Source: a virus
Taxonomy: Duplodnaviria; Heunggongvirae; Uroviricota; Caudoviricetes
Strand: one strand, 5' to 3'
Length of the DNA: 64,000 bases
IMG/VR virus record: IMGVR_UViG_3300021599_001517
Span: 18,702-82,701 of that record
In this document: positions 39,644 to 63,961 of the stretch, piece by piece
How the letters are laid out: the number at the start of each line of letters is the position of its first letter
How positions within the stretch are numbered: the first letter of the stretch is position 1
The notes under the pieces: model-generated
Seen by the model: only the letters and a program-made list of their open reading frames with translations
The model's database searches: none
What the model was told of the DNA's origin: nothing
Translations under genes and position numbers: made by a program

Positions 39644-40573
39644 ATGCAACCAGTACAAATAGCTATGTCGGGAGTTACTCCCGGAACTTATGGAAACAAC
39701 ACCCAGATTCCTTCTTTCACAGTTGATGCTAGAGGTAGACTAGTATGGGCTGCAAATGTTGATATTCAATCAACATTTAAATTTAAGGTTAATGATGACG
39801 ATAGAATTGAAACCGTTAATTTAAGTAATGATTCATTCAATTTTAGAAGTGGACATGGAATCAATATAACACCGGCACCAGACGGAATTAATATTGATTT
39901 TGATAGATCAATAATTCCCGATACTAGTGACTTTGTTAGAAAATCAGAAACATCTCATCAATTTTTAGGATCTATAAGATCTCCGTTAATTTATTCTCAA
40001 GAAGGAATATTTGATTCAGTTACTACAAAAGAAATATTAATAGATGGTGTATATACTAGATTTCAAACAAAAGGGTTCCATGTAGATTTTACAGACTTTG
40101 ATGTTCTTGATTCTAAAGTTTTTCAAATCGATGGAATTTCAAAAAATACTAATACTGAAACAGCAAATTTTAATGTTGATATTACATCTTCTTGGTTAAA
40201 ATTCACCAGTCAAATTGAACTTCCTAATTCTGCTTTAAGTTTTCCAGATGGCCATGCTTTGGGAATTATTTCTTTTCAAGATGGCGGAATTGAAATGGGA
40301 TATGGTGCAGGATTAATTGCTATCAAAAATTTTAATAATGATGGATCTTCACCGACAGGAATTTGCGTTATTACTTCAAATGGGAAAGATGATATTTTTG
40401 AAAATCCAACAAAGTTTAACTTTGGTGGCGACGGAGTATTTGAAGCACCAATTTTAAAAACAAAAAGCTATACAAGTTTGCCAGATAATCCCAAAGAAGG
40501 TTGGATAGTATTTGATGGCAACAACAAACAATTTAAAGGGTGGAACGGAACTAGTTGGATAACTTTAGGATAA
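39644..40573 (+). CDS. Hypothetical protein (possibly a virion fibre/receptor-binding protein); last gene of the + strand block
   Basis: ORF. Asn/Gly/Thr-rich beta-type sequence. Confidence 0.35.
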   Translation: MQPVQIAMSGVTPGTYGNNTQIPSFTVDARGRLVWAANVDIQSTFKFKVNDDDRIETVNLSNDSFNFRSGHGINITPAPDGINIDFDRSIIPDTSDFVRKSETSHQFLGSIRSPLIYSQEGIFDSVTTKEILIDGVYTRFQTKGFHVDFTDFDVLDSKVFQIDGISKNTNTETANFNVDITSSWLKFTSQIELPNSALSFPDGHALGIISFQDGGIEMGYGAGLIAIKNFNNDGSSPTGICVITSNGKDDIFENPTKFNFGGDGVFEAPILKTKSYTSLPDNPKEGWIVFDGNNKQFKGWNGTSWITLG

Positions 40574-42107
40574 GAGGTTTAAAATAATCTCTTATTATTG
40601 TTTCTTTAAACATTTCTGTAAAATTAATAGACTTAATTAAATTTTGATATTCTTTATCTGTTAAATCTAAATTTTTTTCTCTATTGCTTAGTCTACTATC
40701 ATTAAAACTACTAATATAAAAATCTCCTCGATACGGCTTATTCTTCAATGTAGAATTTAATTCTTGCGAAAGTAATTCGGCCTGTTCGTAGCTGTTTATA
40801 TCAGTATCATCATCTTTTCTCCAACTAAAGAAATTTATATCGGGATTAGGAAAATAATAACCATACTTTGAATAATTGCGATCAATTTCACTCATATACA
40901 TGTATTTCATAATATTGTGATTACCAATAATACTTAAAGGAAATGTGTTAGCTAAATCTATTGGGCAATCTTTTCTTTTAAAAAATTCAACAGCCTTATA
41001 AATTGTATCTGTACTTTCGTAAGGTAAACCTATAATAATCCCCGAAGCAATGTAACTTCGATCTCCCCAAATTTCTTTACACTGATAGATAGTATCTATT
41101 AATCTTTCACTAGCCATCCCCTTACCAATAAACTTTGCAGTTTTTGGATTAAATGTTTCTAGACCAAAGTAAGTTTCTGCTATACCGGCATCTTTTAGTA
41201 ATTGTATTTGCTCTGGGTGTGCCGCTAATAAATCTGCTCTTAGATAACACCAAAATTTTAATTCAAAAGGCAAACTCTGACTAACATCTGCAAACATCTG
41301 CATCTTTTCTGTACTATCATTAAACGTATCATCAACAATAAAATATTTTGTTGTTCCCCATTGTTCATAATTTTCTAAGAGTTCTCTACGTATAACATCA
41401 GCTTGTTTAAGATAGTTGACTGTTTTCTGTCCTATCAAAGGATACGAGCAATAGGCACATTTAAATTTACAACCTCTGCTGACTTCTAAATTTAAAGTTT
41501 CTTGAGGTTGTATTAAATCCCAGGACGTATATGAAGTAGTACTTAATTTAAAATCCCATGTTGGATTGTGCGCCTTACGATCATGATCTATAATTCTATT
41601 AAATATCCTTTTTGTTTTTCCCGACAGAGAATCTAACAAATCAATAGTTTCAGTTTCTCCTAATCCGACTATAACATAATCTGTAGGAGCATTAAGATAA
41701 AAATCAATCCTTGCACCACCCAACATTGTTTTTGTTTTTAAATTACATTGTTTGACATAATCGATCCAGGGTTTATAATTATCTCGAGCAAACTCAGTAA
41801 CTAAACTTGGAATCTCAAATCGTTCTTTATCTGTTCCTGTTCCTTCTCCCGGATTACTGGTTCTAACACCAATATCAGGAAACTTAAAAGGCATCCATGT
41901 TGTACTATAGCCAACTAGTAATGTGTTTGGTCCAATTGCTTTATCTAATATTTCAGTGTATATTTCCCAAGTAACAAGAGAGCTAAAATTAATTACTAAA
42001 CAGCTATAACCATAATTGCGTATATGACTGGCTAATCTGTGTACACCATAACCTCTAGATTTAATATTAAATTCTACAGTGTCAGTAAAAAGAATAACAT
42101 CAAACAT
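40551..42107 (-). CDS. B12-binding-domain radical SAM enzyme (class B rSAM), paralog 1
   Basis: N-terminal Rossmann-like B12-binding region (MFDVILFTD...GYGVHRLASHIRNYGYSCLVINF) plus EVSRGCKFKCAYCSYP (CxxxCxxC). Confidence 0.7.
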   Translation of the reverse strand: MFDVILFTDTVEFNIKSRGYGVHRLASHIRNYGYSCLVINFSSLVTWEIYTEILDKAIGPNTLLVGYSTTWMPFKFPDIGVRTSNPGEGTGTDKERFEIPSLVTEFARDNYKPWIDYVKQCNLKTKTMLGGARIDFYLNAPTDYVIVGLGETETIDLLDSLSGKTKRIFNRIIDHDRKAHNPTWDFKLSTTSYTSWDLIQPQETLNLEVSRGCKFKCAYCSYPLIGQKTVNYLKQADVIRRELLENYEQWGTTKYFIVDDTFNDSTEKMQMFADVSQSLPFELKFWCYLRADLLAAHPEQIQLLKDAGIAETYFGLETFNPKTAKFIGKGMASERLIDTIYQCKEIWGDRSYIASGIIIGLPYESTDTIYKAVEFFKRKDCPIDLANTFPLSIIGNHNIMKYMYMSEIDRNYSKYGYYFPNPDINFFSWRKDDDTDINSYEQAELLSQELNSTLKNKPYRGDFYISSFNDSRLSNREKNLDLTDKEYQNLIKSINFTEMFKETIIRDYFKPLILKLSN

Positions 42108-43710
42108 TTTTATTTTTAAGATAGTTTAACAACGGTTGAAAATATTCTTTATTGGTATGATCATAAAACAGTTGATTAAAGTCTATAGAATTTATTAAAT
42201 TATTATATTCTATCTTTGGCATATCGATAGTAAACTCTCTATTTCCAAGTATTGGATGATTGAAAGAACTAACATAAAAATCTCCCTGACGTATTCTTTG
42301 ATATGATGCTAATTCTTTAGTGGTAATGTCGGCTATTTCTTGTGCTTGATAAAAATTTTTAATATCGGTATCATCTTTCTCCCAATATAACATTCCGTCT
42401 ACTCCGTCCTTAGGAAATTGATATCCAAACTTTTCGTAGTTTTCGTCAAACCAACTAGTAGGGAACCATTTATTTCTATCGGTTTTTTTAATTATATTGA
42501 GAGGATATACTGTCGAAATATCTAGCGGACAATCTCTACGCTTTAACCAATCAACGGTTTCTCTCCAACTAGCCTGGGTTTCGTGAGGAAGGCCAATCAT
42601 AAAACCCCCTTCTAACCATACTCGATCACCCCACACTTCTTTTGCTCTATATAAAGTATCCTTACGGCGACTTGATGGCATTCCCTTACCAATAGTTTTT
42701 GAGCTCTTGTCATTAAAAGTTTCAAGACCAAAAAATGTTTCTGCTATGCCTATTTCTTTTAACAGTTCCATCTGTTCGGGATGTGCGGCTAATAGATCAA
42801 CTCGGGTATAACACCAAAATTTAATTTTAAAAGGCAAGTCGCTCATTACCTTGGCCAACATTTCTAATTTTTCAGTGCTGTCATTAAATGTATCATCCAC
42901 AATAAAATACTTAGTAGTACCCCAAAGTTCGTAATTTTTTAACAACTCGTCACGAATAATAGTTGGATATTTTAAATAATCATTGACATTTTTTTGACCA
43001 ATAAGAGGAAAGTTGCAGAACGAACATTTAAATCTACATCCGCGACCTACTTCTAAGTTAAGAGTTTCTTGAGGTTGTATAAAATCATATTCTGTGTATT
43101 GTGTGCTACTTTCTCTAAAATCCCATGTAGGAGCATGAGCTTTTCTATCGTGATCGATATATTTTCCAAATATGCGTTTTGTTTTTCCCGATAGTCGATC
43201 TAATAAATCAATAGTTTCAGTTTCGGCAATTCCAAAAATAACATGATCTATATTTTTTAGATCCATATAAAAATCTGCTTTTGCACCACCTAATACAATT
43301 TTTAATTTTGAATTAATTGTTTTAGGATATAACAACCATTCTTCAACTTCATTCTTTCCAAATTTAACCACTAAATTATCTTTTCTCCAATCGTGCATCT
43401 CTGACTTTAAATGACTTAATTCATGTTGTTCCCCAATATGGTGTCCGGGAATCTGATTGGTAAATTCTCCTGGTTTTTCCGGCCATCTATAAGGTAACCA
43501 AGTTGTACTAAAACCAACCATAAGAGTTTCTGGTCCCACTGAATTATCAATAATTTCTTTATATCTATCAAATGTTAGTGCCGAACTAAAATCAATGACA
43601 AGACAAGAGTAACCATTTGTTCTAATTTGACTAGCAATTCTATGCACACCATAACCTCTAATTTTATGATGAGGATAGGGAGCATCGGTAAATAGTATGA
43701 CATTAAACAT
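42100..43710 (-). CDS. B12-binding-domain radical SAM enzyme, paralog 2 (tandem duplicate of 40551-42107)
   Basis: MFNVILFTD...GYGVHRIASQIRTNGYSCLVIDF plus EVGRGCRFKCSFCNFP. Shares ETIDLLD.LSGKTKRIF with paralog 1. Confidence 0.7.
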   Translation of the reverse strand: MFNVILFTDAPYPHHKIRGYGVHRIASQIRTNGYSCLVIDFSSALTFDRYKEIIDNSVGPETLMVGFSTTWLPYRWPEKPGEFTNQIPGHHIGEQHELSHLKSEMHDWRKDNLVVKFGKNEVEEWLLYPKTINSKLKIVLGGAKADFYMDLKNIDHVIFGIAETETIDLLDRLSGKTKRIFGKYIDHDRKAHAPTWDFRESSTQYTEYDFIQPQETLNLEVGRGCRFKCSFCNFPLIGQKNVNDYLKYPTIIRDELLKNYELWGTTKYFIVDDTFNDSTEKLEMLAKVMSDLPFKIKFWCYTRVDLLAAHPEQMELLKEIGIAETFFGLETFNDKSSKTIGKGMPSSRRKDTLYRAKEVWGDRVWLEGGFMIGLPHETQASWRETVDWLKRRDCPLDISTVYPLNIIKKTDRNKWFPTSWFDENYEKFGYQFPKDGVDGMLYWEKDDTDIKNFYQAQEIADITTKELASYQRIRQGDFYVSSFNHPILGNREFTIDMPKIEYNNLINSIDFNQLFYDHTNKEYFQPLLNYLKNKNV

Positions 43711-43733: not shown

Positions 43734-44420
43734 ATGGTAAAAAAATTTAATTCAGTTCTAGCATTTGGAGATAGTCATGTTGCTGGATGTGAATTATCAA
43801 ATCAATATACTTTTGAAGATTATACCAGAGGTAAAATAACAATAGAACAAGCAGATGATTCTGGAAAAAAATTAGCCTTTCCTCAAGTGGTTGCTGATAA
43901 ATTAAATATTCCTTGTTATAATTATGCAATGACTGGCGGAAGTAATGCTCGTAGTCTAAGATTATTAGTCAACGCATTACAAGAACATCCAAATAGTTTA
44001 GTATTGTTTGGGTATACATGTACAGATAGAACAGAATTTTACTATCCAGACGTTGGCAATTTCTTAGGTAGAGATAAAGATAAATTCATACAAGTTGGTA
44101 TGCAATGGAAAGGTAAGGTTGATGGAACCATGATTCATCCAATTAACGATCTGTTTGTTAATGAAATGCTTCGTCCTTATAATAATTTAAATGAATTAAT
44201 GTTTATAGTAGATAATTTATGTACAGGATGGGCTACTGATTTTTTACATTTACCGTTGTTTCCAGAAATTATACCAAAGGTAGATAATGTTTTTAATTTT
44301 GAAAGTTGTGAGAATTATGTAAATTGGTGTGAATTCAAAATGTATAAAAAATTACCATTTTATCATTACGATCAAGAAGCACATAATAATTTGGCTAGAT
44401 TAATTCTTGAGGAGTTATAA
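43734..44420 (+). CDS. SGNH/GDSL-like hydrolase (putative)
   Basis: N-terminal AFGDSHVAG (block I), ...TGGSNA..., C-terminal ...DQEAHN. Confidence 0.4.
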   Translation: MVKKFNSVLAFGDSHVAGCELSNQYTFEDYTRGKITIEQADDSGKKLAFPQVVADKLNIPCYNYAMTGGSNARSLRLLVNALQEHPNSLVLFGYTCTDRTEFYYPDVGNFLGRDKDKFIQVGMQWKGKVDGTMIHPINDLFVNEMLRPYNNLNELMFIVDNLCTGWATDFLHLPLFPEIIPKVDNVFNFESCENYVNWCEFKMYKKLPFYHYDQEAHNNLARLILEEL

Positions 44421-44773
44421 TGTCTTGGGGTTATCATATTATGTTAGATTGTGCCGGTTGTGATTTAAAAAAAATTAAAGATAAAGATCACATATGGGCA
44501 TTTGTATATACATTAATAAAACGTGTTGAAATGGAAGCGCACGGAAAAATGATCATTGAAAATTTATTACCAGGAACAGACAATGAAGGATATAGTGTAT
44601 TACAAATGATTACTACAAGTAATATAAATTGTCATTTTGTAAACAAGACTGCTGATGCTTATATTGATTTGTTTAGCTGTAAAGAATTTAAAGCAGAAAT
44701 AGTTATTGCTACTGTTAAAGAATTTTTTAATCCAACCAGCATCAAATTAAACTTTGTAGAAAGACAGGCTTAG
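44420..44773 (+). CDS. S-adenosylmethionine decarboxylase-like protein (SpeH / class 1b AdoMetDC fold)
   Basis: Aligns with B. subtilis SpeH (GRHVISELWGCD / GYHIMLDCAGCD; ...ESHLTIH.FPE.GYA..DV.TCG / ...TSNINCHF......AYIDLFSCK), but has Thr-Ser where the self-cleaving Glu-Ser lies. Confidence 0.5.
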   Translation: MSWGYHIMLDCAGCDLKKIKDKDHIWAFVYTLIKRVEMEAHGKMIIENLLPGTDNEGYSVLQMITTSNINCHFVNKTADAYIDLFSCKEFKAEIVIATVKEFFNPTSIKLNFVERQA

Positions 44774-45849
44774 GGATCTATCCTCATATCCTCTCTGCTA
44801 CGAAATCTATAACGTTCCGGAACGGTGTCATATAATATCATATTCTTGTTTACAGCCGCGTCACGTAGCATGATTTGATGTAGAAAATTACTAATAGGTT
44901 TATTAGGTACAAAGTCACACCACGGACCACATCGTAGCTCTTCCATATCAATGGTTTTAGGATCGCTCCATTGTATTAATCTATGTGTGATACCGTTAAT
45001 CTTAACCATATAATGATACAGATTATCATCTGCAGGTATCTTTTCCCATGTCCATCCTTTGCTGTCTACATAGTCCTTAATTGCTTTTACATGGTCACTA
45101 AGATAATAACGAGGTTCATCCGGGTTGCGACCAATGTCGCTGCCAGCACGTACACGATACTGTAAGGCATTATTTCCTAGTTTTTGTATTTCTTCTAGTA
45201 CTTCTGGAATGTGATTTAAGTTTTCTAATGTATAACCTACGTAGTAAACAACAATGCCAGCAGCCTTACAATTCTCAATACCTTGTAACTGTTTTTGATG
45301 TACAGTATCACCTTGGTACGAATGATGGTTAAGTCCTACCATCACAGCACGACATCCAGCCTTGGCTATTTCTTCAGTCCACTGCTTATCAGCGAGCTTA
45401 ACACCATTAGTTAAAATTGTAATATCCTGGTGTGTTCTGCCTAGGCGAGTTTGTACATGTCTGATGTTTCTAATTAGTTCAGGTAAGTCTTTACGTAGTG
45501 TAGGTTCAGCACCTGCAAGGATAACGCTACCAGCATCTTCAGGCCAACTTTCAATTTGTTGAAGTATTAATCCTAAGGGTTTGTCTGTTGTTGCATTTTC
45601 TGGTTCATGATAACAGTGCGGGCATTTTAAATTACAGCGATCTGTAACTTCAATCATAATACCACTGGGCACATCGTATCCGTACGGATCAAATTCTAAA
45701 CTCTTATAAAAGTCTGAATCGCGTTCTATCATATATTCACTATAACCGTGCTCCGGACACTCTTTACTCATCCACACGCTACCATCTCGTATAAACTTTT
45801 TAGCAGAAACGTGTCTATAACAATGTTCGCATAAACTTATTGTGTCCAT
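44770..45849 (-). CDS. Radical SAM protein with an N-terminal Cys/His cluster (CEHC...CPEH), then CNLKCPHC
   Basis: CxxxCxxC plus the downstream G-rich SAM motif region. No SPASM-like C-terminal Cys cluster. Confidence 0.65.
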   Translation of the reverse strand: MDTISLCEHCYRHVSAKKFIRDGSVWMSKECPEHGYSEYMIERDSDFYKSLEFDPYGYDVPSGIMIEVTDRCNLKCPHCYHEPENATTDKPLGLILQQIESWPEDAGSVILAGAEPTLRKDLPELIRNIRHVQTRLGRTHQDITILTNGVKLADKQWTEEIAKAGCRAVMVGLNHHSYQGDTVHQKQLQGIENCKAAGIVVYYVGYTLENLNHIPEVLEEIQKLGNNALQYRVRAGSDIGRNPDEPRYYLSDHVKAIKDYVDSKGWTWEKIPADDNLYHYMVKINGITHRLIQWSDPKTIDMEELRCGPWCDFVPNKPISNFLHQIMLRDAAVNKNMILYDTVPERYRFRSREDMRIDP

Positions 45850-46382
45850 CTATCTACCTTTGATAATTGATCTAAAAATATATTTTTATTAAGTTTCCAG
45901 AACGTTTGTTTATGACCTCTATAATTATGATCAAACGCTCTGGTCAGCACTCCTGTAGATTCTAATGTGGGCCCCCATATTGTATGAACTAATCTTTGTG
46001 TGCCAACTTCGCTTTCGTGACTAGTAATATACATATCATGATTGCCTACCCATTCAATACAAGTGGGCATAAAAAACTGTGCAGTAATATGTTGATGATT
46101 TTTAATTTGATTAATTGTTCTTAAAGTTATTTTAGGTAAGTGATTGGTTAATACACATGTTCTAGCACAAATCCTATATCCAAGATCGTCTAAAGTATGT
46201 GCCGCCACAGATCCAACAGGGTGGTCATTATAATATAATATCCAGATGTTCCAACGTACTTCATTTTTAAAACAATCGATCATTGCTGCTTGACTTGAGT
46301 TATTTACGAAACCTCTAGATTTTGCCTCGGCATAAAATTCAGTAAGATCTAAATCTTCCGACCATGGAACTATTTTATACAT
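45837..46382 (-). CDS. Hypothetical protein
   Basis: ORF translationally coupled to its neighbours. Confidence 0.4.
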   Translation of the reverse strand: MYKIVPWSEDLDLTEFYAEAKSRGFVNNSSQAAMIDCFKNEVRWNIWILYYNDHPVGSVAAHTLDDLGYRICARTCVLTNHLPKITLRTINQIKNHQHITAQFFMPTCIEWVGNHDMYITSHESEVGTQRLVHTIWGPTLESTGVLTRAFDHNYRGHKQTFWKLNKNIFLDQLSKVDRWTQ

Positions 46383-47074
46383 TCTTTTACACTTTCTATA
46401 AAATCTTGAGGATAGTTTGTTCTAAAACTCTCCCAACATAATTGGTCCATTATTTTCCAAGGTTGCGGTGTATGCCATTCGATGTTCAGTGTTTTTAAAT
46501 GCTTACGCATTTCTGCTTGTCTATTAGAGTGGATGTGACTTTCAACATCTTTAATGCTAATATTAGGTTCTTCTTCATGATATGTAAAAAAATAATTAAT
46601 GCTTTTAAGCTGACCGTTAACAACAAAATAACTGCTGGGATGCATACTATATTTGTGTAATCCTAAACTTTTGTGGGCTGTGATAATTTTACACATCTGA
46701 TCTTTCCAATCTGGTAATACTTTATCATAATTTTCAGTAACACATCCTGCACGATTCCAAAAGTCTAAACCATCTATAGACAAATAAATTTTTTGTTCTT
46801 TATGATTTATTTCTAATATTTTTGGAACTTTATCTTCATACTTCCGGGCCATTTCTATAAGATATTTTACTTCACGATTCCACTTAGCATTCATCAGATT
46901 CGAATCAACAACTTCATTATTCCCTTTATGATATTCACTATCATTATGATACCATTGGACAAAAGTTTTTTTATCACGACTGATCAAGCTGGTGTAAATA
47001 AGGTTGTTCCTTGTTAAACCAACTCCAGGAACATTGTTGTAATAATATTCATAATCCATACATTTAATTATCAA
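46370..47074 (-). CDS. Hypothetical protein
   Basis: ORF only. Confidence 0.4.
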   Translation of the reverse strand: MIIKCMDYEYYYNNVPGVGLTRNNLIYTSLISRDKKTFVQWYHNDSEYHKGNNEVVDSNLMNAKWNREVKYLIEMARKYEDKVPKILEINHKEQKIYLSIDGLDFWNRAGCVTENYDKVLPDWKDQMCKIITAHKSLGLHKYSMHPSSYFVVNGQLKSINYFFTYHEEEPNISIKDVESHIHSNRQAEMRKHLKTLNIEWHTPQPWKIMDQLCWESFRTNYPQDFIESVKECIK

Positions 47075-48448: not shown

Positions 48449-48696
48449 TCTTTTTCTTTTTCTATCATCATTAACACAAAGGTATTAATATTTTTCCAAG
48501 ATTTAATAAATTCTTCGTTATTATCTAACCATTGTTTAAATTCATCACTTTCTAAATAATCTTTATAATCTACATGGTCAATGTTTTTTATAAATTTGCT
48601 AATGCTATACATAATATCAGCCGGAGTATCCATTTCGTTTGTCATTGCAATTATGTTATAAATTTCTTCTTGAAGATTATTCATAAGAATTAACAA
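48439..48696 (-). CDS. Small acidic hypothetical protein
   Basis: 85-aa ORF upstream of, and coupled to, a B12-rSAM gene. Confidence 0.35.
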   Translation of the reverse strand: MLILMNNLQEEIYNIIAMTNEMDTPADIMYSISKFIKNIDHVDYKDYLESDEFKQWLDNNEEFIKSWKNINTFVLMMIEKEKDYL

Positions 48697-54603: not shown

Positions 54604-54620
54604 AAGTCTATAAATACCGC

Positions 54621-56434: not shown

Positions 56435-57436
56435 ATCCAAAGTTAAACAGTGGATTCCTGCTTCCCAGAATAATCCGTGGCGTTGTGGTACTACATGACA
56501 GTTAATGCTGTAACGTTCCATGACTTTAAAAATACCGGGCTGATGATTGCTGAATAAAATATTGTTGCTGTCAATAACTAAAACATTACTATCAAAAAAC
56601 ACTTCTTGTGCATACCCTTTCCATTCGGTTAGCCACTTATCGATCCAAGCATCACTAAATTTGCCTGTTGTGTTTCGATAGTCATTGATAAATTTTGTAT
56701 CGTCGAATTTCTCAAAATGATCTTGTAGCTCTACTATCTGCTTATTATGCAACGGTTCTGGTACCCAAGTTTTGTTTACGCAAAAAATTAGATCATCGTT
56801 AGTCATAAACCATCCGTGATCTATGTGTCCAAAACCTTTCTGATGTGTATTGCCTGCATCAATAATAGTATTTTCTGGAAGATTACGTTTCATCCATTCG
56901 AGTCCAAGAGTATTTCCCGGTCCTTTGATATTAGTAATTAATTTGTCTCCGCACTTAAACATTGTAGCTGTATGCCATAGAACTTGATTCTTTAATTGCT
57001 CGTGATAGACATATTCACCGTTTGCCCACCATCTATCTACTAGTGTATCTAATTTTGGTGGAGGCATGCTTATCCAATTATAACCTCTATCAAAAAATTC
57101 CTTAAAAATATGTGTGTAATTTATGCTGTCTAAATATCTATCAGGCATACTAGTATATGTTTGATAGATGGTATTTCCATAAACTAGATATTGATCTCGG
57201 GGAACAATAGGAGCAGTTGCATATTTAATTTTAAAATTGCTTAGATCAATATCTTCTTTAAAATAGGTTACATCGGGACGATATACTTTAATTCCCATTT
57301 TAATCAAATAGTCTGCTAGATTATCTAAATCTTCTTTAGTTTCGATAAAAATTTGAGATAATTTATTTCGACTATGATCAACAAAACAGTTACCTACTAT
57401 AATTTCTTTAAGCGGATCCCAATTAGTATAAATCAT
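56396..57436 (-). CDS. Amidinotransferase-superfamily enzyme (AGAT / StrB1-like)
   Basis: N-terminal TNWDPLKEIIVG, internal GFGHIDHGW, C-terminal WEAGIHCLTLDLSREG (G.HC.T.D..R catalytic Cys motif). Confidence 0.6.
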   Translation of the reverse strand: MIYTNWDPLKEIIVGNCFVDHSRNKLSQIFIETKEDLDNLADYLIKMGIKVYRPDVTYFKEDIDLSNFKIKYATAPIVPRDQYLVYGNTIYQTYTSMPDRYLDSINYTHIFKEFFDRGYNWISMPPPKLDTLVDRWWANGEYVYHEQLKNQVLWHTATMFKCGDKLITNIKGPGNTLGLEWMKRNLPENTIIDAGNTHQKGFGHIDHGWFMTNDDLIFCVNKTWVPEPLHNKQIVELQDHFEKFDDTKFINDYRNTTGKFSDAWIDKWLTEWKGYAQEVFFDSNVLVIDSNNILFSNHQPGIFKVMERYSINCHVVPQRHGLFWEAGIHCLTLDLSREGRNRSVIS

Positions 57437-58920
57437 TTGTTTAACTTTTTTTCTACATATTCTCGCTCTCTCGGACCTGTTCGATTTTTAGGAGCATCAA
57501 AATATTTTACTTTATCTAATACTTCTTGAAGAGGAATATCGGGATAGGTATAATCAGCAAAAGTCCAGATGCTAGATTTCATTATAATCTCATCTCTTAC
57601 AATTTTAACATAAAAGTCATCGACTATTTTACACGCATCTGCATAAGTCATGTTATCATTTTCCCATATAACTTTATCGTTAGCTTGCTTCACTCGTGTT
57701 TCGGCCGATCCAAAAAATTTGACTTCCTCTGGAGGTTCTGGCTCGGGTATATCTGAATGTCGATACCCATATTTTCCCATATCTTTTGATATAGTAGATT
57801 GCACATCATTAGTTTCTGATCCGTGTATTTCTAAAGGAAATGCATGGACACATTCACCTTGCCAATTTTTTTCAATCCAATTAAAAGTTTTTATCTGACT
57901 TTCTAATGTTTCGTGCGGAAGTCCTACTACTATTCCGAGTGCCCCTCTGTAAGGACCATTGCTTAAAAAATAATTTTTTACTTCGATTAATCCATCTCCG
58001 AGTTTTTCCGGTCTCATTCCCTTTCCAATAAATTTTGCTGTTTCATAATTCATAGTTTCTATACCATAAAAATGTCCAACAAATCCCATCTTTAATAAAG
58101 GTTCCCAATCTCTTCTTCTAGAAACTAAAAGGTCTGCACGAATAAATCCTGCAAAAATAGTATCAAGATTTAATTGTTGTATAGCATCTGAATATTTTTC
58201 TATTTTTTCACTATGATCATTAAAAGTTTCATCGGCCATGTAGTAATTTTTGATTCCCCACCTTTCCCAATTTTCTTTCATATCTTCCTTAAAATCTTCT
58301 GCCGATCGAGTATAATCTCCCTTAACACCAAGAACCGGATGATTACAATATGGACATTGAAATTTACAACCTCTAGAGCACTCTATCGTCAACCATTCCC
58401 AGGGTTGTAGATCATCTCGATCTTGATATTTTATTGTGAGGCGATTCATAGGAAAAGCAGGATAATGTTTATTTGCGCTAATAACTTTTTTCTTTCCAAG
58501 ATATAACGGATCAAGGGTTATTTTATTATTCGAATTTCCTACAAAAGATCTGGCAAGTTCTAATACTGCTAATTCTCCGTAGCCGTGAATATAGTAATCG
58601 ACTTTTTTAGTATTAATTAGAGGTTTACTTTGTCCTCCTACAATTATTCTAATGTAAGGATAAGAAGATTTAATCCAGTCAATAAAAATATCAACGTCGT
58701 CGCTCCATGCATTAAAAAAAGAACTGAAACCAATAAAAATAGTTTTAGAACTTATACGCATTTTAGCTACTTCTTTTAATTCTTCTAGCGTGAATGATTT
58801 AACGTAATCTATTACCTCTACATCCCATTCGTGTTCGCGAAGAAATGTGGCTATCCTATATGGGCCTGCCAATCTCCTTAATGCCAAGTCGTGAACACAA
58901 AAAATTAATGCGTGATTCAT
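57433..58920 (-). CDS. B12-binding-domain radical SAM enzyme, paralog 4
   Basis: N-terminal B12-binding-like Rossmann region plus IECSRGCKFQCPYCNHP. Confidence 0.7.
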   Translation of the reverse strand: MNHALIFCVHDLALRRLAGPYRIATFLREHEWDVEVIDYVKSFTLEELKEVAKMRISSKTIFIGFSSFFNAWSDDVDIFIDWIKSSYPYIRIIVGGQSKPLINTKKVDYYIHGYGELAVLELARSFVGNSNNKITLDPLYLGKKKVISANKHYPAFPMNRLTIKYQDRDDLQPWEWLTIECSRGCKFQCPYCNHPVLGVKGDYTRSAEDFKEDMKENWERWGIKNYYMADETFNDHSEKIEKYSDAIQQLNLDTIFAGFIRADLLVSRRRDWEPLLKMGFVGHFYGIETMNYETAKFIGKGMRPEKLGDGLIEVKNYFLSNGPYRGALGIVVGLPHETLESQIKTFNWIEKNWQGECVHAFPLEIHGSETNDVQSTISKDMGKYGYRHSDIPEPEPPEEVKFFGSAETRVKQANDKVIWENDNMTYADACKIVDDFYVKIVRDEIIMKSSIWTFADYTYPDIPLQEVLDKVKYFDAPKNRTGPREREYVEKKLNK

Positions 58921-59336
58921 GTTTCTAAAATCTCTTTTAAATATTCTTCACTCCAGTGCGTATAATAACTAGATTTAGATAATTTATCTCTCGCTTTATT
59001 CAGTTCGTCTCTCCACTGGCACAGAATTAAATTGTGTTCTCCATTATTAGTTTGTATACCATTAATGTAGGTTATTCTATTTTTAGGATCTGGTAAGAAA
59101 ACCATCTCTGGATAAATGCTGTTATATTCTTTCGCAATTTTAAATATTTCTTCTTCGGAATAGTCATTCGGTAATTTATAAATGATGAGCTCAAAATTCC
59201 AAGGAGGTGGATCGATATCTGATCCATCAGTTTCAATAATTTCATACTTAGAACCTTTAGCATACGGACAAATGCTAAATCCACCAAGTTCATCTCTAGG
59301 TTGGGTAATACGATCAATCCAATTGTCAATATCCAT
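58917..59336 (-). CDS. Hypothetical protein
   Basis: ORF coupled to its neighbours. Confidence 0.4.
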   Translation of the reverse strand: MDIDNWIDRITQPRDELGGFSICPYAKGSKYEIIETDGSDIDPPPWNFELIIYKLPNDYSEEEIFKIAKEYNSIYPEMVFLPDPKNRITYINGIQTNNGEHNLILCQWRDELNKARDKLSKSSYYTHWSEEYLKEILET

Positions 59337-59943
59337 TTTGTACCGTTATACTTGAAATAAAGTTTCTACCATTGATACTCTGTAAAATTAAATCAACAGT
59401 CTTTGTAAGATCTTCAATTGTAATTATGCTATTGGTATCCATTACCTTATTATATAATTCTATACCATTCTGATTTTCTGTGTCATAGGGATTATAAAAA
59501 TTAGTTTGACAAACACCTGGCATAATAACTATGCTTTTACATTTACTACCGCTATGATTTATATCCCAGCTGACTTTATTAATAGCATATTTTTCTTCTC
59601 CGTAGTTTTTAAGCCATGGAAAATTTTTAGGTATATCTGCTAATGGTTCTGCAGCTATAGAACTTGTACTTATAATAAAATGAGGATCATTCCAATGTTG
59701 TTGGTGCCATAATTTCATTAGTTCTACTTGAGAATAATAATGATAGGCATTATTGATAAACAAATCACAATCTTTTGTATAAGAAATAATAATATCTTGA
59801 TTAGATCTATCACCGATATCGAAACCGTTGTCTTTGCTAAATCCTTTAACTCTACAATTTAAATTAAGAAAATAATCATATAATCCTTTGCCAATCCCGC
59901 TGGTATGACCAGTAATTGCTATATTATTAAATTTCATAAACAT
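59326..59943 (-). CDS. Short-chain dehydrogenase/reductase (SDR)-like NAD(P)-binding protein
   Basis: N-terminal ITGHTSGIGKGL (TGxxxGIG) and an NNAY segment. Short (205 aa). Confidence 0.5.
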   Translation of the reverse strand: MFMKFNNIAITGHTSGIGKGLYDYFLNLNCRVKGFSKDNGFDIGDRSNQDIIISYTKDCDLFINNAYHYYSQVELMKLWHQQHWNDPHFIISTSSIAAEPLADIPKNFPWLKNYGEEKYAINKVSWDINHSGSKCKSIVIMPGVCQTNFYNPYDTENQNGIELYNKVMDTNSIITIEDLTKTVDLILQSINGRNFISSITVQNGY

Positions 59944-60472
59944 CTTCCTTAAGAAGTTCTAATAACACAACAACTCTAGGAGATGATGTGTGATTCCAAA
60001 CCGAATGAGGAGTTTCTACATCTAATAAAAAACATTCCCCCTCGAACCATCTTCCTCGATAATCTCCTTCTGAGAATCCGACATCTCCGAGAGGAATAAT
60101 TAGAGGAACGTGACAAATAACATAATTTTCGTGACCTTCTTCTGTATCAGTGTGCATCGGAACAACTCCGCCTGCGTCTAAAACACTGTAACCTGCACTA
60201 CGACAAGTATCACCAAAACTTTTAACTAGTTCAGTTAATATTGGGTATCGAGATAAATTTTTATCTTCCCATTTGCCCATAATTTTAATTACAAGCATTT
60301 TCCATTTATTTTGAGGATCTAAACTGTTTCCAATATATTCGCTGTAGAGGGGAATGTTACCAGTATCGTAACCGTGAACAGTCACAAATTCATTTTTTAA
60401 TTTTGGTATAAATTTATTAATTTTATCTTTAAAAATAAATTTGTTTATGTCATAGATCATTCCACTCTCCAT
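59927..60472 (-). CDS. Aspartyl/asparaginyl beta-hydroxylase-like cupin (Fe(II)/2OG oxygenase)
   Basis: GGVVPMHTDTEEGHE...HSVWNH (HxD...H facial triad pattern of PF05118). Confidence 0.5.
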   Translation of the reverse strand: MESGMIYDINKFIFKDKINKFIPKLKNEFVTVHGYDTGNIPLYSEYIGNSLDPQNKWKMLVIKIMGKWEDKNLSRYPILTELVKSFGDTCRSAGYSVLDAGGVVPMHTDTEEGHENYVICHVPLIIPLGDVGFSEGDYRGRWFEGECFLLDVETPHSVWNHTSSPRVVVLLELLKEDVYEI

Positions 60473-61607
60473 CCATGTGCCACGAAGGAAGTGAATCTTT
60501 ATAAATCTCCGATGCCTTATTTACAGTAACAATAATGGCATTGGGATTATATTCTTTAATTTTTTTGAACAATAGATTCTCATTATATATTCTGTGTCTT
60601 AATGGAACAAAAGGTGCTACGGGATCGTAATTAAAAATATGACTAAGATGCACAATAGTAGAAGGCACTGCATCTAGCCAATCGCTTACTTCGAGATTTT
60701 TGTTAAGAACTAAATCTTGATGAGAAAATTCGAATTTAACGACTTTACTAATGTCACTCCAAATTACAGGATCAATCCGTTGTTCAACACCAGTTAACGT
60801 TATCCACTCTTGTTTTTTATTTTTTAAAAAACTTGATCTTTTATTAACATACGTTTTTACAAATTCTAAATAATTCAACCCGTCCCAATTCTTTATAATA
60901 TATTCCATACACTCTAAAGCAAACAAATTATAATCTACAAAACGAACAACGGTATTTTTATCATATCCATATTCTAAAAGATATTCTATAAACTGCAATC
61001 CACTTGCTTGAATTACTAATTGTTGTATTGGTGTACTACAATTAATTTTTATAACTTCTTCTGTATTGTAAGGATAGAATAATGTTTGTGAGGCAACCTC
61101 GTTTTTGCCGTATAGATAATCGCACGATTTTATAAACGCAGGTTCATAATTAGGATAATAGTATCTTTTGTTTTTTCTGAAACGATCTGCAAATGGTTTC
61201 ACAAATTTATTATTAGCAAACGCAACACTAAGAATGTTCCAGCCGTGCCATTTGTGTTTATATTGACGTTCGGTATCGCCACCGGTTACCCAGATAGGAG
61301 TATAATCGTCGTGAATATTTTCTTCACTGCGTCTGGGTGCTATCTGTGTATGAGCTGAATAATATTCAAATTTTCCTATAACAGGACAACCTAATTCTTT
61401 GTAAGTTTTTAGATTGATTATGTAGCATTGTTCGTGTAATTCATAATAACCATCATCCCTATCTGGTATATGACCCCAGATAAAAAATTCTTTGCCGCTG
61501 TAGACTTCCTTTTCGACTTCATGGAAAAATTCATCACCGTTGATGAACTCTGTGCCTGTACTTAATACAACTGCATGTGTATATTCTTTGGCGGCTTCTT
61601 GTAACAT
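60450..61607 (-). CDS. Hypothetical protein (385 aa)
   Basis: ORF only. Confidence 0.4.
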   Translation of the reverse strand: MLQEAAKEYTHAVVLSTGTEFINGDEFFHEVEKEVYSGKEFFIWGHIPDRDDGYYELHEQCYIINLKTYKELGCPVIGKFEYYSAHTQIAPRRSEENIHDDYTPIWVTGGDTERQYKHKWHGWNILSVAFANNKFVKPFADRFRKNKRYYYPNYEPAFIKSCDYLYGKNEVASQTLFYPYNTEEVIKINCSTPIQQLVIQASGLQFIEYLLEYGYDKNTVVRFVDYNLFALECMEYIIKNWDGLNYLEFVKTYVNKRSSFLKNKKQEWITLTGVEQRIDPVIWSDISKVVKFEFSHQDLVLNKNLEVSDWLDAVPSTIVHLSHIFNYDPVAPFVPLRHRIYNENLLFKKIKEYNPNAIIVTVNKASEIYKDSLPSWHMDGEWNDL

Positions 61608-61654: not shown

Positions 61655-62302
61655 TTAAATTTTACCATATTGATTATTATAACATCTTACTAACATTTCA
61701 CAAAACTCGGCAGTTCTATGTCCCAATATAATGTTAGCAATCATATGCACTCTTGGTTTACTGCTACGATTAAAAACGGCATGTTTTTTGCTTATATTGA
61801 TCATAATTATCTTTCCTTCTTTCCAAGGAACTTTCTTATCTTCTATAAACATCTCGCAATTATTTGGATGAGCTATAGCAATATTAATTGGTAGAATAGA
61901 TAATAATGGATCCATATCCAGTGGAATCTCGCCGTCGGTGTGCCAGTTTATATTACTCCACGGTGCCAATTTCATAAAACGTATTCTTGTATATCTTTCT
62001 GCAGGAAATTGATTCTTCCAAAAATCTGTAATTACAGGACACTTGTATGCTAGATCAGTATATTGATAAGGAGCATGATATTCATTATAACCATACCTGT
62101 CGGCAGTGTATGTTTTATCAATACCCAATCCGTGTAAACAACAACCGCTCCATCCTTCGCTATATCCTTCTCTATATTCTTGATAATGAGGCTCTGCTTC
62201 TAATGCCTGTTGTTTCCAGATATCTGCATTAAAAGAAATATCTAATTCTAACCAAGGTATATCTGATCTTAATATTTTACGTGCTTGTTCTATGCTATCC
62301 AT
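61655..62302 (-). CDS. Aspartyl/asparaginyl beta-hydroxylase-like cupin
   Basis: NINWHTDGEIPLD...KKHAVFN. Confidence 0.5.
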   Translation of the reverse strand: MDSIEQARKILRSDIPWLELDISFNADIWKQQALEAEPHYQEYREGYSEGWSGCCLHGLGIDKTYTADRYGYNEYHAPYQYTDLAYKCPVITDFWKNQFPAERYTRIRFMKLAPWSNINWHTDGEIPLDMDPLLSILPINIAIAHPNNCEMFIEDKKVPWKEGKIIMINISKKHAVFNRSSKPRVHMIANIILGHRTAEFCEMLVRCYNNQYGKI

Positions 62303-62868
62303 GATTTAAAAATTTCTAAAGATTCTGCTATTGTTAGTCCCGCTTCTGGATTCTCTTTCCTACTAATGTCACAACTAATTAACCAACGCGGTTCCCAAAC
62401 ATTATTGTGAATGTTATGTGGAATGCCAGTTTGCACGATTGTAGGCCATTTAACCACGTGAGAATATAAATGATTAACTTGGTTAGGGTGGTATTGTATG
62501 TAAGGTGTACCTGCTTGGGTATCCGTAGTTTCAAATGGTTGCTCGCCCTCTTTAAGTTTGTACCAATGCATCATACTACCAGCACCCTGTACACACCAAT
62601 TCATAACAGCACGGTCTGCGTCAGGAGAATGTCCGTCAATGTGTATACCGCATTGCTTGCCTTTAGGTGTGTAAAAAATAAGAGGAGGATAAGTTATTAC
62701 TAATCCTAAACTATCAAGCCAGGATCGAAACTCATCAGATACGTCACTATGATTAGCAAACCATATTTCTGTTTGGTCGCCTGTTTGATTTAATATAGCA
62801 GGGTTTACTAACGGATGAGATATCGGTATAGATAAATCGATAGCATAATTAGTGTTCACTTTTGCCAT
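62290..62868 (-). CDS. Cupin-like protein (CGIHIDGHSPD... HxD)
   Basis: Motif only. Confidence 0.35.
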   Translation of the reverse strand: MAKVNTNYAIDLSIPISHPLVNPAILNQTGDQTEIWFANHSDVSDEFRSWLDSLGLVITYPPLIFYTPKGKQCGIHIDGHSPDADRAVMNWCVQGAGSMMHWYKLKEGEQPFETTDTQAGTPYIQYHPNQVNHLYSHVVKWPTIVQTGIPHNIHNNVWEPRWLISCDISRKENPEAGLTIAESLEIFKSWIA

Positions 62869-63419
62869 CCAAAGAAATTAAACATATATTTTGTTTCAAG
62901 TCCCATATTCAGTCCGCCATGCCAATTTTGCCAATCATCCCAACGATAAACATCTCCTTGTTTAGGATCGTATATAGCATGATTTTCAATTATTGATACC
63001 TGACCAAAGCTAGGCTCGCATATATAGCAAGTATAATGAACAATTGGTCCTTTTGATAACCATTCTTTTTCCTGGTTGGGCATCTTATAATCGGGATGCC
63101 AAGGAACTATATACCCTGGAGGAACGGCACTAACCCAACAGCCTGCAGGTTCACAATTTATCCATTTAGAAAAATTTTCAACCCATACATTAGAAAAATG
63201 CTCATAAGGCAAATAATCAATCCATTTTGCTGCGGCATTATTTTTATCATAACCTGCATTTTCCCAAATCTTAATTAGTTTTTCTACTTTGGGATTTCCT
63301 AAATGTATATCATCTTCCTGATCGTTTCCTCTTAATCTAGGAGGTATTAATTTAAGATGATTTATTAAATCTTCCCATTTCATTGTTTTATTTGAATTTC
63401 CAATGTATGTGGCCATCAC
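62856..63419 (-). CDS. Cupin/Fe(II)-oxygenase-like protein, 'WHGG' paralog family
   Basis: VPWHPDYKMP ... YRWDDWQNWHGGLNMGL...FNFFGW. Confidence 0.4.
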   Translation of the reverse strand: MMATYIGNSNKTMKWEDLINHLKLIPPRLRGNDQEDDIHLGNPKVEKLIKIWENAGYDKNNAAAKWIDYLPYEHFSNVWVENFSKWINCEPAGCWVSAVPPGYIVPWHPDYKMPNQEKEWLSKGPIVHYTCYICEPSFGQVSIIENHAIYDPKQGDVYRWDDWQNWHGGLNMGLETKYMFNFFGWQK

Positions 63420-63961
63420 TTTATTCCTAAAAAATGAAACATAAATTGATCATGGAGCCCGCAGTTACCACCTGCATGATAATCTAAGTAATGGTCCCAC
63501 TGATATGTATTACCAGAAAGTTCGCAATGAAAACATTGATTTTTACAAACAAAAACTCCTCCCGGATAAGGGTGACTGATAAAAGTACTGAACCGAATTA
63601 CTTCTCCCTGAGATAGATATTCTTCAATGTTATCATCGATGTCTTGATGTATTGGAGCATATTTTCCTGGACGTATTTTACTAATCCATGCTCTAGCACA
63701 TTTCATTCCAACAAATTTTTCAAATTCTATAACACACGAATTATCAAAATGTTTTATAGGATAATAATTAAACCACTCAACAGTGTCAACTTTATCATAG
63801 CCCGCATCAATCAACATTTGGATGTTATTGTCAAATCGACCATCAAAGTTCTTATAAAAGTCTACACCAAACGCTCTCCGATCGCCTTCTTCAATACATA
63901 AAGAGTCAATTATACTATCCCATTTTCCTGCAAAAAAATTACCTATAAACTTAATTGACAT
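63416..63961 (-). CDS. Cupin/Fe(II)-oxygenase-like protein, 'WHGG' paralog family
   Basis: APIHQDIDDN ... YQWDHYLDYHAGGNCGL...FHFLG. Tandem paralog of 62856-63419. Confidence 0.4.
   Translation of the reverse strand: MSIKFIGNFFAGKWDSIIDSLCIEEGDRRAFGVDFYKNFDGRFDNNIQMLIDAGYDKVDTVEWFNYYPIKHFDNSCVIEFEKFVGMKCARAWISKIRPGKYAPIHQDIDDNIEEYLSQGEVIRFSTFISHPYPGGVFVCKNQCFHCELSGNTYQWDHYLDYHAGGNCGLHDQFMFHFLGIK

Follow-up and report, generated by a model that had tools for sequence, protein, structure and literature searches.

A layered, phage-borne enzyme island built around an essentially virus-restricted cassette of radical SAM enzymes

Single auxiliary metabolic genes are a familiar part of phage genomes, and cyanomyoviruses and pelagimyophages are known to carry gene clusters for surface glycans. 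Cassettes of radical S-adenosylmethionine (SAM) genes have been reported in the hypervariable host-recognition cluster of pelagimyophages, beside lipopolysaccharide (LPS)-type glycosyltransferases (PMC7029224, Zaragoza-Solas et al. 2020). The T4-like environmental viral genome TARA_ERS488813_N000010 holds 12 radical SAM genes (PMC5332604, Nishimura et al. 2017), and three 'antibiotic synthesis genes' have been noted, without definition or mechanism, in Synechococcus phage S-SCSM2R (PMC12801897). Here we analyze a 64,000-nucleotide stretch of viral DNA (hereafter the window; positions 18,702 to 82,701 of IMG/VR record IMGVR_UViG_3300021599_001517, Caudoviricetes), in which positions 40551-63961 are filled by an island of radical SAM enzymes, oxygenases, an amidinotransferase and an aminotransferase. 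An initial annotation, made from the sequence alone, had proposed a tailoring island of ~23 kb that might run past the window edge. The island does run on, by a further ~8 kb, and it is layered: a five-gene core, a second tier present in ~12 relatives, and sporadic B12-type radical SAM enzymes and a GT-B-like protein.

The pelagimyophages resemble the phage of the window in being T4-like aquatic myoviruses, AT-rich, with a variable island that holds radical SAM cassettes; ribosomal protein S21 occurs in both, and S21 together with an AspH-type hydroxylase is typical of pelagimyophages (PMC7029224). Their cassettes lie near glycosyltransferases and tail fibres, whereas the window island has an auxiliary-gene block on one side and a tRNA array on the other and no tail fibre is in view, and the paper mentions the cassettes only, giving neither a gene set nor a function (PMC7029224). 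TARA_ERS488813_N000010 can be likened to our locus by description only, with its 12 radical SAM genes against 11 in one island here; these were merely counted, in connection with Fe-S cluster supply, and their arrangement and partners were not described (PMC5332604). S-SCSM2R carries, in a hyperplastic region, an amidinotransferase homolog (31% identity, C-terminal third), a radical SAM 'maturase', an aminotransferase and many 2-oxoglutarate (2OG) oxygenases. There the neighbours of the amidinotransferase are KdsA/B, numerous glycosyltransferases and 2OG oxygenases, and recognisable glycosyltransferases, KdsA/B and sugar-nucleotide enzymes dominate, the reverse of the balance in the window island; S-SCSM2R also lacks the M444 family described below, and no class B or N-terminal-twitch radical SAM enzyme occurs in the region compared. 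Set beside host-recognition islands, our locus is T4-like by NrdA, variable between relatives and equipped with one glycosyltransferase-like gene, with a tail fibre beside the cassette in 28/80 relatives and not in the window. A link to the amoC phages was considered and is not established; they share the oprP porin but were reported absent from Lake Erie. The view of the initial annotation that this gene combination matches no described phage system needs qualifying: radical SAM cassettes had been noted before (PMC7029224, PMC5332604), and neither paper defined or explained them. The literature searched held no description of an island layered in this way, of a virus-restricted core of five genes or of its extension by four class B radical SAM enzymes and a guanidinylation module. 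We place the island among the flexible auxiliary islands of T4-like aquatic myoviruses, and there is a substantial chance that its core cassette is a new enzyme system.

The island is phage-borne. At least six independent assemblies (JGI, ENA, NCBI; four data sources) agree across its junction at 40.5 kb with 99.6-100% identity, which excludes a chimera and rules out a bacterial capsule or LPS locus joined to phage DNA by misassembly, an outcome that the initial annotation had named as one that would refute its proposal. The backbone also has a tmRNA and a tRNA array. The longest sibling contigs of the window genome are 138 and 212 kb. NrdA is nearest (56-61% identity) to T4-like myoviruses of Ralstonia, Xanthomonas and Stenotrophomonas, and by it the backbone is T4-like; we read the genome as that of a large T4-like freshwater myovirus. 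NrdA also indicates relatives that infect beta- or gammaproteobacteria, and the host is probably a proteobacterium. Megablast returned no close relatives among deposited phages, and protein searches gave scattered matches only.

Within 40551-63961, 28 open reading frames (ORFs) are packed so tightly that neighbours overlap or stand at most 48 nt apart, the sole larger intergenic gap being 194 nt at 52457-52650. Twenty-two lie on the minus strand and the rest form three plus-strand pairs (43734-44773, 47083-48448 and 54621-56434). The resulting six strand switches imply several transcription units, so that of the almost gap-free, operon-like block first described, the tight packing stands and the single operon does not, the uneven phylogenetic spread of the genes telling against it as well. 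Sigma-70-type promoters and intrinsic terminators are no more frequent than expected by chance. Past the window edge, sibling contigs extend the island to window-equivalent ~71,960, through two small HxD...H proteins followed by two N-terminal-twitch radical SAM enzymes and two of 305 and 328 amino acids (aa), together with one radical SAM enzyme of 351 aa, a PIG-L family deacetylase and a 287 aa protein without assignment. The far end is a tRNA array with at least 14 genes (Leu, Phe, His, Gln, Arg, Ile, Met, Lys, Asp, Ser, Cys, Glu, Trp and Tyr) that directly follows the last radical SAM gene and was read on two contigs, L024 (942-3116) and L022 (32-119), just right of the window end. With five extra radical SAM genes and the tRNA array as its limit, the whole island measures ~31 kb and holds 11 radical SAM genes.

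Its most constant part is a core cassette in which three types of radical SAM enzyme are joined by an oxygenase of the AspH kind and by M444, a methyltransferase-like protein of 444 aa. Co-occurrence was counted in 80 loci fetched from IMG/VR around M444, which has 283 confirmed hits there. With M444 as anchor, the core families are present in 71-80 of the 80 loci: the 305/328-type radical SAM enzyme in 79, the N-terminal-twitch type in 75, the 351/353 type in 73 and AspH-215 in 71. The arrangement is fixed in that AspH-215 stands immediately upstream of M444 (71/80), and the radical SAM types are mostly multi-copy. By the same count the amidinotransferase reaches 16 loci, the aminotransferase 12, the B12-type radical SAM enzymes 5-7, and the GT-B-like protein and PIG-L deacetylase none. 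Co-occurrence divides what had been annotated as one block: the five-gene core recurs widely and the block as a whole does not, its tiers being spread very differently.

In 185,579 species genomes the M444 family appears at a single locus, the 11 kb contig NYWG01000113.1 (L032; GC 0.35) of a metagenome-assembled genome, where the core families recur at 22-44% identity in shuffled order, along with an amidinotransferase, a homolog of the island's SGNH-250 protein and a WHGG protein. This contig was binned as Verrucomicrobiales and is likely a mis-binned viral fragment. The family has zero matches in 50,697 deposited phage records, a cultured pelagimyophage included. The core cassette is essentially virus-restricted, common in uncultured phages and absent from the cultured ones searched. 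Two relatives of M444 are fusions with an AspH domain. Taken together, the co-occurrence, the shuffled and divergent locus and the M444-AspH fusions make a strong case for a joint function of the five core genes.

The window itself holds three core genes, all on the minus strand. M444 (60450-61607), whose window copy is without ~59 N-terminal residues, combines an N-terminal domain lacking a fold assignment with a predicted C-terminal class I methyltransferase fold; AspH-215 (61655-62302) is a 215 aa AspH-family dioxygenase (Pfam Asp_Arg_Hydrox, 4.8e-14); and a 351/353-type radical SAM gene (52457-53394; Pfam Radical_SAM, 9e-13), with a Cys-rich, SPASM/twitch-like C-terminal part, is left with a damaged ORF of 247 aa at 52651-53394. 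Each core radical SAM type occurs twice in the window phage (328/305, 351/353 and 432/411 aa). Their matches in PDB indicate core-fold similarity and carry no functional assignment: the 351/353 type is closest to BlsE, a nucleoside-sugar decarboxylase (3e-8), the 305/328 type to viperin-like and MoaA enzymes (1e-13 to 1e-11, with QueE also listed), and the N-terminal-twitch type to the lipid-coupling GDGT-MAS, then to SkfB and MoaA; SkfB and CteB feature among the nearest structures of the core enzymes. One curated NCBIfam model, NF033640 (N-terminal twitch; cut-off 170 bits), is passed by the 432 and 411 aa proteins beyond the window, at 419 and 331 bits. Five N-terminal-twitch paralogs also occur in the cultured jumbo vibriophage K566 (Vibrio phage, 255 kb) at ~9300-26700, where they adjoin ribonucleotide reductase genes and a PagP-like gene and are annotated merely as hypothetical or radical SAM proteins.

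The cassette has recurrent neighbours. A Peptidase_G2 protein, with a tail-fibre intramolecular-chaperone domain, lies upstream in 28/80 loci. A PP-loop SGGxDS protein with a C-terminal Cys cluster (motif found by eye) accompanies the cassette in 45/80 loci, a GT8-like DxD motif protein in 39/80 and a tryptophan halogenase (Pfam, 2e-88) in 10/80; these loci are marine and freshwater, and none of the three proteins occurs in the island of the window phage.

A second tier co-travels with the core in ~12 relatives (49-72% M444 identity) and consists of an amidinotransferase, an aminotransferase, a short-chain dehydrogenase/reductase (SDR)-like protein, WHGG proteins and the small proteins c210, u139 and c192; a zinc-ribbon radical SAM enzyme, u181, k234/k191 and WH267 are often there too. 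The amidinotransferase (346 aa; 56396-57436, minus strand) is assigned by homology to the AGAT/StrB1/HsvA superfamily, with phmmer matches in PDB to HsvA (3e-21), StrB1 (2e-19), SxtG and AGAT that extend down to 1e-13. It has no Pfam match, Pfam's own model staying under threshold; all of 23 diverse clade members keep H204, D206, H329 and C330, the last two in a G-x-H-C330 motif, which corresponds to the Asp-His-Cys set, with its Cys near the C-terminus, expected of the family. More than 365 environmental homologs were found. The class III (omega) aminotransferase (394 aa; 55250-56434, plus strand; Pfam Aminotran_3, 2e-40) is nearest in PDB to amine:pyruvate, putrescine/polyamine, gamma-aminobutyrate, acetylornithine and BioA transaminases. 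The SDR-like protein (205 aa; 59326-59943, minus strand), recognized by TGxxxGIG and YxxxK motifs and a weak Pfam Epimerase match, is more widespread (33/80 loci). The putative HxD...H cupin c210 (54621-55253, plus strand), which the WHGG family profile matches at 7e-5, travels with the aminotransferase and amidinotransferase in relatives. u139 (58917-59336, minus strand; 13/80 loci) has no assigned family and is always found alongside the SDR, amidinotransferase and aminotransferase, and c192 (62290-62868, minus strand; 13/80 loci) is another protein with a cupin-like HxD...H motif.

The third tier is sporadic. Pfam recognizes Radical_SAM in six window proteins, all encoded on the minus strand. 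Besides the core enzyme at 52651-53394, these are the enzyme with an N-terminal zinc ribbon at 44770-45849 (359 aa; Radical_SAM 3e-19, Zn_ribbon_HMPTM 7e-15), which resembles HMPTM, TrsS and Tes proteins, matches the NCBIfam TrsS and Tes models under cut-off and occurs in ~10/80 loci, and four enzymes of class B architecture, for which cobalamin binding is predicted, at 40551-42107 (518 aa, CKFKCAYC), 42100-43710 (536 aa, CRFKCSFC), 48677-50470 (597 aa) and 57433-58920 (495 aa, CKFQCPYC). Only the 597 aa protein has a B12-binding domain above the Pfam cut-off (34.9 bits against 32.1); it is nearest to the KedN5-type C-methyltransferases, scoring 177 bits where the NCBIfam cut-off is 700. The domain is sub-threshold, at 20.4 bits, in the 495 aa protein (Radical_SAM 8e-12), and NCBIfam alignments to PhpK and HpnR span the N-terminal domain. 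Pfam does not directly detect it in the 518 aa protein (Radical_SAM 1.2e-16) or its tandem paralog of 536 aa. From residue 16 on, these two are paralogs of the 495 aa protein (the 518 aa protein shares 53% identity with its 536 aa paralog and 28% with the one of 495 aa), and hhalign aligned a profile of the group to residues 67-362 of the 597 aa protein with 96.8% probability, overlapping its B12 region, so that both would be expected to contain the domain. The best NCBIfam matches of the 518 aa protein are all B12-radical SAM families, far under their cut-offs, and it has no sequence match in PDB. The four B12-binding-domain paralogs first annotated thus hold outright for one protein and by sub-threshold or indirect evidence for three. 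A homolog of the 536 aa protein (82% identity) is present in just 1/80 viral loci. Homologs of the 597 aa protein (44-50% identity) lie on six further viral contigs, where the shared synteny amounts to that gene and at most one neighbour and the remainder of the island is absent.

Further additions are specific to this lineage or thinly spread. They include a 212 aa class I SAM methyltransferase (53378-54016, minus strand; Pfam Methyltransf_25, _31, _12 and _11), a 117 aa homolog of the SpeD/SpeH-type pyruvoyl enzyme S-adenosylmethionine decarboxylase (AdoMetDC; 44420-44773, plus strand; Pfam AdoMet_dc 1.2e-17; NCBIfam SAM_DCase_Bsu 39 bits against a cut-off of 76) and two SGNH-like candidates. 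One of the latter, an SGNH/GDSL-like protein of 228 aa (43734-44420, plus strand), shows an FGDSH motif by eye and no Pfam, PHROG or NCBIfam match; the other, SGNH-250 (250 aa; 51704-52456, minus strand), has an FGDSF motif, occurs in 17/80 loci and is 42% identical to its homolog on NYWG01000113.1. A 417 aa putative glycosyltransferase (50463-51716, minus strand) is GT-B-like by structural match, best to T4 DNA beta-glucosyltransferase with alpha-glucosyltransferase also listed; its family has no match in IMG/VR and appears limited to the window lineage. Neither this protein nor M444 has a significant sequence or profile match in PDB. All motifs quoted in the initial annotation were located in the ORFs it named, and Pfam profiles and PDB matches bear out most of its enzyme classes: the aminotransferase and class I methyltransferase through Pfam (Aminotran_3, Methyltransf), the amidinotransferase through PDB matches, the AdoMetDC/SpeH-like protein through AdoMet_dc, and the two radical SAM proteins beyond the class B set, one with an N-terminal Cys/His cluster, through Radical_SAM in both and Zn_ribbon_HMPTM in one. 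Its SDR and SGNH-like calls are motif-based, the motifs being present, with the weak Epimerase match in addition for the SDR.

We tentatively favour, at somewhat below an even chance, the reading that the island makes or modifies a moiety of non-ribosomal origin, like a sugar, cyclitol or polyamine, for a surface or virion glycoconjugate or for release as a metabolite. This starts from the enzyme classes, their layered co-occurrence, their residence in a phage and the purifying selection on their genes, from which we infer the order of reactions, the class of substrate and the destination of the moiety. A flexible, horizontally reshuffled enzyme island of a T4-like freshwater myovirus would carry, as its second tier, a route of guanidinylation: the SDR would turn a hydroxyl into a ketone, the omega-aminotransferase the ketone into an amine and the amidinotransferase the amine into a guanidine, and several small HxD...H oxygenases would go along with this trio. 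The same progression from hydroxyl to ketone, amine and guanidine is the logic of streptidine biosynthesis (StrI, StsC, StrB1); HsvA is a polyamine enzyme and StrB1 an inosamine-phosphate enzyme. In the third tier the four class B radical SAM enzymes would likely C-methylate unactivated carbons, and the other lineage-specific additions would contribute a second methyltransferase, two SGNH-like esterases, a PIG-L-type N-deacetylase, the AdoMetDC homolog and the GT-B-like transferase. The resulting moiety could be heavily hydroxylated, methylated, aminated and guanidinylated, and the GT-B-like enzyme might pass it on to a glycoconjugate, plausibly one of the cell surface or the virion with a part in host recognition or superinfection exclusion. 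The carbohydrate or amine direction is suggested by the GT-B-like fold, the PIG-L deacetylase, the HsvA/StrB1-like amidinotransferase, the polyamine/amine-type transaminase, the viperin-, MoaA- and BlsE-like core radical SAM enzymes and the setting of the amidinotransferase homolog of S-SCSM2R beside KdsA/B and glycosyltransferases. The host-recognition context is suggested by the Peptidase_G2 genes beside the cassette in 28/80 loci and by the position of pelagimyophage radical SAM cassettes near LPS-type glycosyltransferases. The initial annotation had offered an aminated or guanidinylated small molecule, or a hypermodification, as one of two branches, and this is the better supported one, with SDR, aminotransferase and amidinotransferase found together in ~12 relatives.

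Aminoglycoside and aminocyclitol pathways offer the natural comparison; they include the StrI-StsC-StrB1 set of streptomycin, GenK/GenD1, GenN and GenD2/GenS2 of gentamicin, BtrN, and PIG-L-type deacetylases. Such clusters share with the island a dehydrogenase, an aminotransferase, an amidinotransferase, class B radical SAM C-methyltransferases, an N-/O-methyltransferase, a twitch radical SAM enzyme, a GT-B protein and a PIG-L protein. The resemblance of this tailoring set holds at the level of enzyme class only, with subfamily scores far under cut-off and an aminotransferase of class III. No scaffold enzyme (2-deoxy-scyllo-inosose synthase or inositol-phosphate synthase) was found among the island ORFs, a negative that is not absolute with ~10 ORFs unassigned.

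Several points weigh against the sugar-, cyclitol- or polyamine-like moiety. No enzyme that would define the substrate was found: among the island proteins Pfam and NCBIfam reveal neither a sugar-nucleotide synthase nor a sugar-phosphate cyclase nor a nucleotidyltransferase. The aminotransferase is of class III and not of the DegT type usual in sugar amination; every radical SAM subfamily match apart from NF033640 falls far under its curated cut-off; ~10 island ORFs have no fold or family assignment; and no tail-fibre gene lies within the window. Two island genes, the 353 aa radical SAM gene and M444, are damaged in the window copy. We place just short of an even chance the broader proposition that the core is a previously undefined, essentially virus-restricted enzyme system, extended here by the guanidinylation module and four cobalamin-type radical SAM methylases into a complete pathway, whose product, formed in the course of infection, would be a new, heavily tailored natural product or a macromolecular decoration (a unit of a glycan, a metabolite resembling nucleosides or aminoglycosides, or a modification of virion or DNA).

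The other branch of the initial annotation was a ribosomally synthesized and post-translationally modified peptide (RiPP) of the proteusin/polytheonamide kind. Proteusin clusters share with the island several class B radical SAM methyltransferases, hydroxylases and a class I methyltransferase, and AspH enzymes and SPASM/twitch radical SAM enzymes are classic modifiers of proteins and peptides. It is unlikely, in our estimate, that these enzymes act with the methyltransferases on a RiPP precursor or on a structural protein such as a tail fibre, even though many peptide-maturase families appear among the weak NCBIfam matches, SkfB and CteB are among the nearest structures, tail-fibre-like genes stand beside the cassette in 28/80 loci, and the virion proteome of S-SCSM2R holds an amidinotransferase and a prolyl hydroxylase (PMC12801897). 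De novo clustering of ORFs of at least 35 aa in the 80 loci returned only shadow ORFs and two unrelated small families, so that none of the small ORFs standing free within or around the cassette is conserved, and Pfam and NCBIfam show no RiPP recognition element (RRE) or PqqD domain, no leader peptidase and no exporter, which makes the RiPP reading weak. Unlike proteusin clusters, the island yielded no precursor, epimerase-type radical SAM enzyme, protease or transporter (Pfam, NCBIfam and 80 loci), and its core radical SAM enzymes are as near to viperin, MoaA and BlsE as to peptide maturases. Moreover, enzymes such as the amidinotransferase, omega-transaminase and SDR do not belong to the tools of protein modification. 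The ORF at 48439-48696 (minus strand), put forward as a candidate precursor, encodes a small acidic protein of 81-85 aa that looks helical, has no homolog in the 80 loci and is a real gene (dN/dS 0.05) that is not precursor-like.

The GT-B-like protein bears on a further alternative, which we consider improbable: that the island hypermodifies nucleic acid, with phage DNA (through a base that is glycosylated or decorated with polyamine or guanidino groups) or the tRNAs of the phage itself as the target. Its best match is T4 DNA beta-glucosyltransferase and the backbone is T4-like, but the gene is limited to the window lineage and any GT-B fold tends to match the T4 enzyme. The abutting array of at least 14 tRNA genes, the nearness of the 305/328-type radical SAM enzyme to the nucleotide-acting viperin and MoaA, with QueE listed, and the PP-loop SGGxDS protein that flanks the cassette in 45/80 loci would all suit such a role, and the AdoMetDC homolog, transaminase and amidinotransferase could make a polyamine-like side chain. 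Nevertheless, Pfam and NCBIfam detect no base hydroxymethylase, 5-hydroxymethyldeoxyuridine DNA kinase, pyrophosphorylase-type transferase or DpdA/TGT in the island, and no marker enzyme of the known phage systems of DNA hypermodification (T4 glucosyl-hmC, thymidine hypermodification, 7-deazaguanine) was found in the island or the annotated part of the window (of a ~212 kb genome). Homologs of the core cassette adjoin tail-fibre genes, not replication genes.

Composition and variation raise the question of whether the island serves one pathway at all. The initial annotation took its codon usage and AT-richness to match the rest of the window; in fact GC is 0.324 in the island and 0.380 in the backbone, GC at third codon positions is 0.231 against 0.279 (Mann-Whitney p = 6e-5), and relative synonymous codon usage correlates at r = 0.88 between island and backbone, compared with r = 0.98 between the two halves of the backbone. 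The median GC of the 80 related viral loci is 0.34, and the island behaves like a flexible island common to AT-rich phages. L030, a divergent relative from an unrelated sample series with the same gene order, is ~99.5% identical to the window over 54001-60472 and 83-89% over 47083-54016, a jump that places a recombination boundary inside the island near 54.0 kb. The two damaged genes owe their state to a 110 bp frameshifting deletion at 52656 in the 351/353-type radical SAM gene, intact at 353 aa in L020-L023 and L030, and a 116 bp deletion at 61639/61640 that takes the start of M444. Older JGI sibling contigs from Lake Erie are free of single-nucleotide polymorphisms relative to the window, yet carry distinct deletions of 56-246 bp, several in the same two genes; deletions fall elsewhere too (16129-16274 and 34793-35037), and newer assemblies are intact. 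These deletions are either an assembler artefact or real microheterogeneity of the population.

A hyperplastic region that gathers unrelated auxiliary genes and duplicates, some of them decaying, would account for this mosaic, for the range of per-gene GC (0.23 to 0.39) in an island unlike its backbone, for independent deletions striking the same genes, for the six strand switches and very different spread of the tiers, and for a 597 aa B12-radical SAM enzyme that exists elsewhere without the rest. We hold the absence of any single pathway to be quite doubtful all the same: the core families stay together in 71-80 of 80 loci and again in the shuffled, 22-44% identical locus, an M444-AspH fusion exists, and tier 2 genes co-travel. 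Selection speaks in the same direction. In comparison with L030, genes from 47083 to 54016 have nonsynonymous to synonymous rate ratios (dN/dS) of 0.02-0.17 at dS of 0.55-1.9, among them WH267 (0.02), k191 (0.17), the 81-85 aa ORF (0.05), SGNH-250 (0.12) and the 212 aa methyltransferase (0.085). This strong purifying selection acts on annotated and unannotated island genes alike, the GT-B-like protein included.

The oxygenase complement is large and unevenly secured. Pfam confirms three Fe(II)/2OG oxygenases in the window: AspH-215, a 200 aa 2OG-FeII_Oxy_5 protein (54001-54603, minus strand; 4e-16) that resembles TIGR02466 (59.6 bits against a cut-off of 62.5), and a 181 aa AspH-family dioxygenase (59927-60472, minus strand; Asp_Arg_Hydrox 1.3e-21; weak NCBIfam OlsC and LpxO matches). 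Seven more proteins have HxD...H motifs and are putative cupins, judged by these motifs, by cross-matches between family profiles and by a marginal PDB match. Three belong to a WHGG group: WH267 (267 aa; 47083-47886, plus strand; 18/80 loci), a 187 aa protein (62856-63419, minus strand; 34/80 loci) and its 30% identical paralog of 181 aa (63416-63961, minus strand), a YHAGG variant placed by paralogy and family profile. H108, D110 and H167 are invariant in the family, whose best PDB match is a small beta-hydroxylase at a marginal E of 0.03. A relation between the WHGG profile and the Oxy_5 protein was sought with hhalign and none appeared. The at least eight cupin- or 2OG-oxygenase-like proteins first listed included two AspH-like enzymes, which hold, two of the 2OG-FeII_Oxy_5 type, of which there is one, and four with WHGG, a motif exact in two. 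Other island genes are u181 (45837-46382, minus strand; 11/80 loci), without a family match, and the paralogs k234 (46370-47074, minus strand; 29/80 loci) and k191 (47873-48448, plus strand; 33/80 loci), which share the family profile c22 (3.5e-75 and 1.4e-54). For ten unassigned island ORFs PHROGs gave nothing useful. A BFVD fold search returned only uncharacterised proteins of uncultured phages.

To the left of the island, window positions 1-40573 form a single-strand (plus) block of host-like auxiliary genes in which no structural gene was seen. It encodes NrdA/B, a peroxiredoxin and a CMD protein, PstS and a phosphate-selective porin O/P, a SleB-like hydrolase, S21, an Rv2179c-like exoribonuclease, an IMPDH/GMP-reductase-like protein, DnaK, HSP20, ClpS, ClpP, an IF1-like protein, a heme oxygenase and bilin reductase, a GATase, a metallophosphoesterase, an S11 DD-carboxypeptidase and an SPFH protein. 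In sibling contigs the gene at window ~31083-31718 (plus strand) matches Pfam PF26128 (Gad2), an anti-Gabija counter-defence family. A permuted, two-piece tmRNA lies at 5454-5914 (plus strand; Rfam tmRNA_permuted 152.6 bits, beta_tmRNA 135.9 bits), and its tag peptide according to ARAGORN, ANDNAFDFTAMSFTGNTVANDSKFALAA, might aid host identification. The late-promoter octamer of T4 type, TATAAATA, is far rarer than expected, at 2 sites where 11.6 +/- 3.5 would be predicted; the two sites (38750-38757 and 54609-54616, plus strand) stand directly before the IF1-like gene and the c210-aminotransferase pair, the second 5 nt upstream of c210.

An island of 31 kb with 11 radical SAM enzymes, ~10 oxygenases and a guanidinylation module would rank among the most elaborate biosynthetic inventories reported in a phage. 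The gain is a defined target, a compact cassette of five genes that hundreds of uncultured viral contigs carry, through which the long-noted 'radical SAM cassettes' of aquatic myoviruses become testable by heterologous expression. The island implies that infection relies on Fe-S cluster supply, SAM and cobalamin, and so touches on the economics of B12 and iron in lakes. Moreover, it could reveal new radical chemistry in host recognition, superinfection exclusion or the evasion of host defence.

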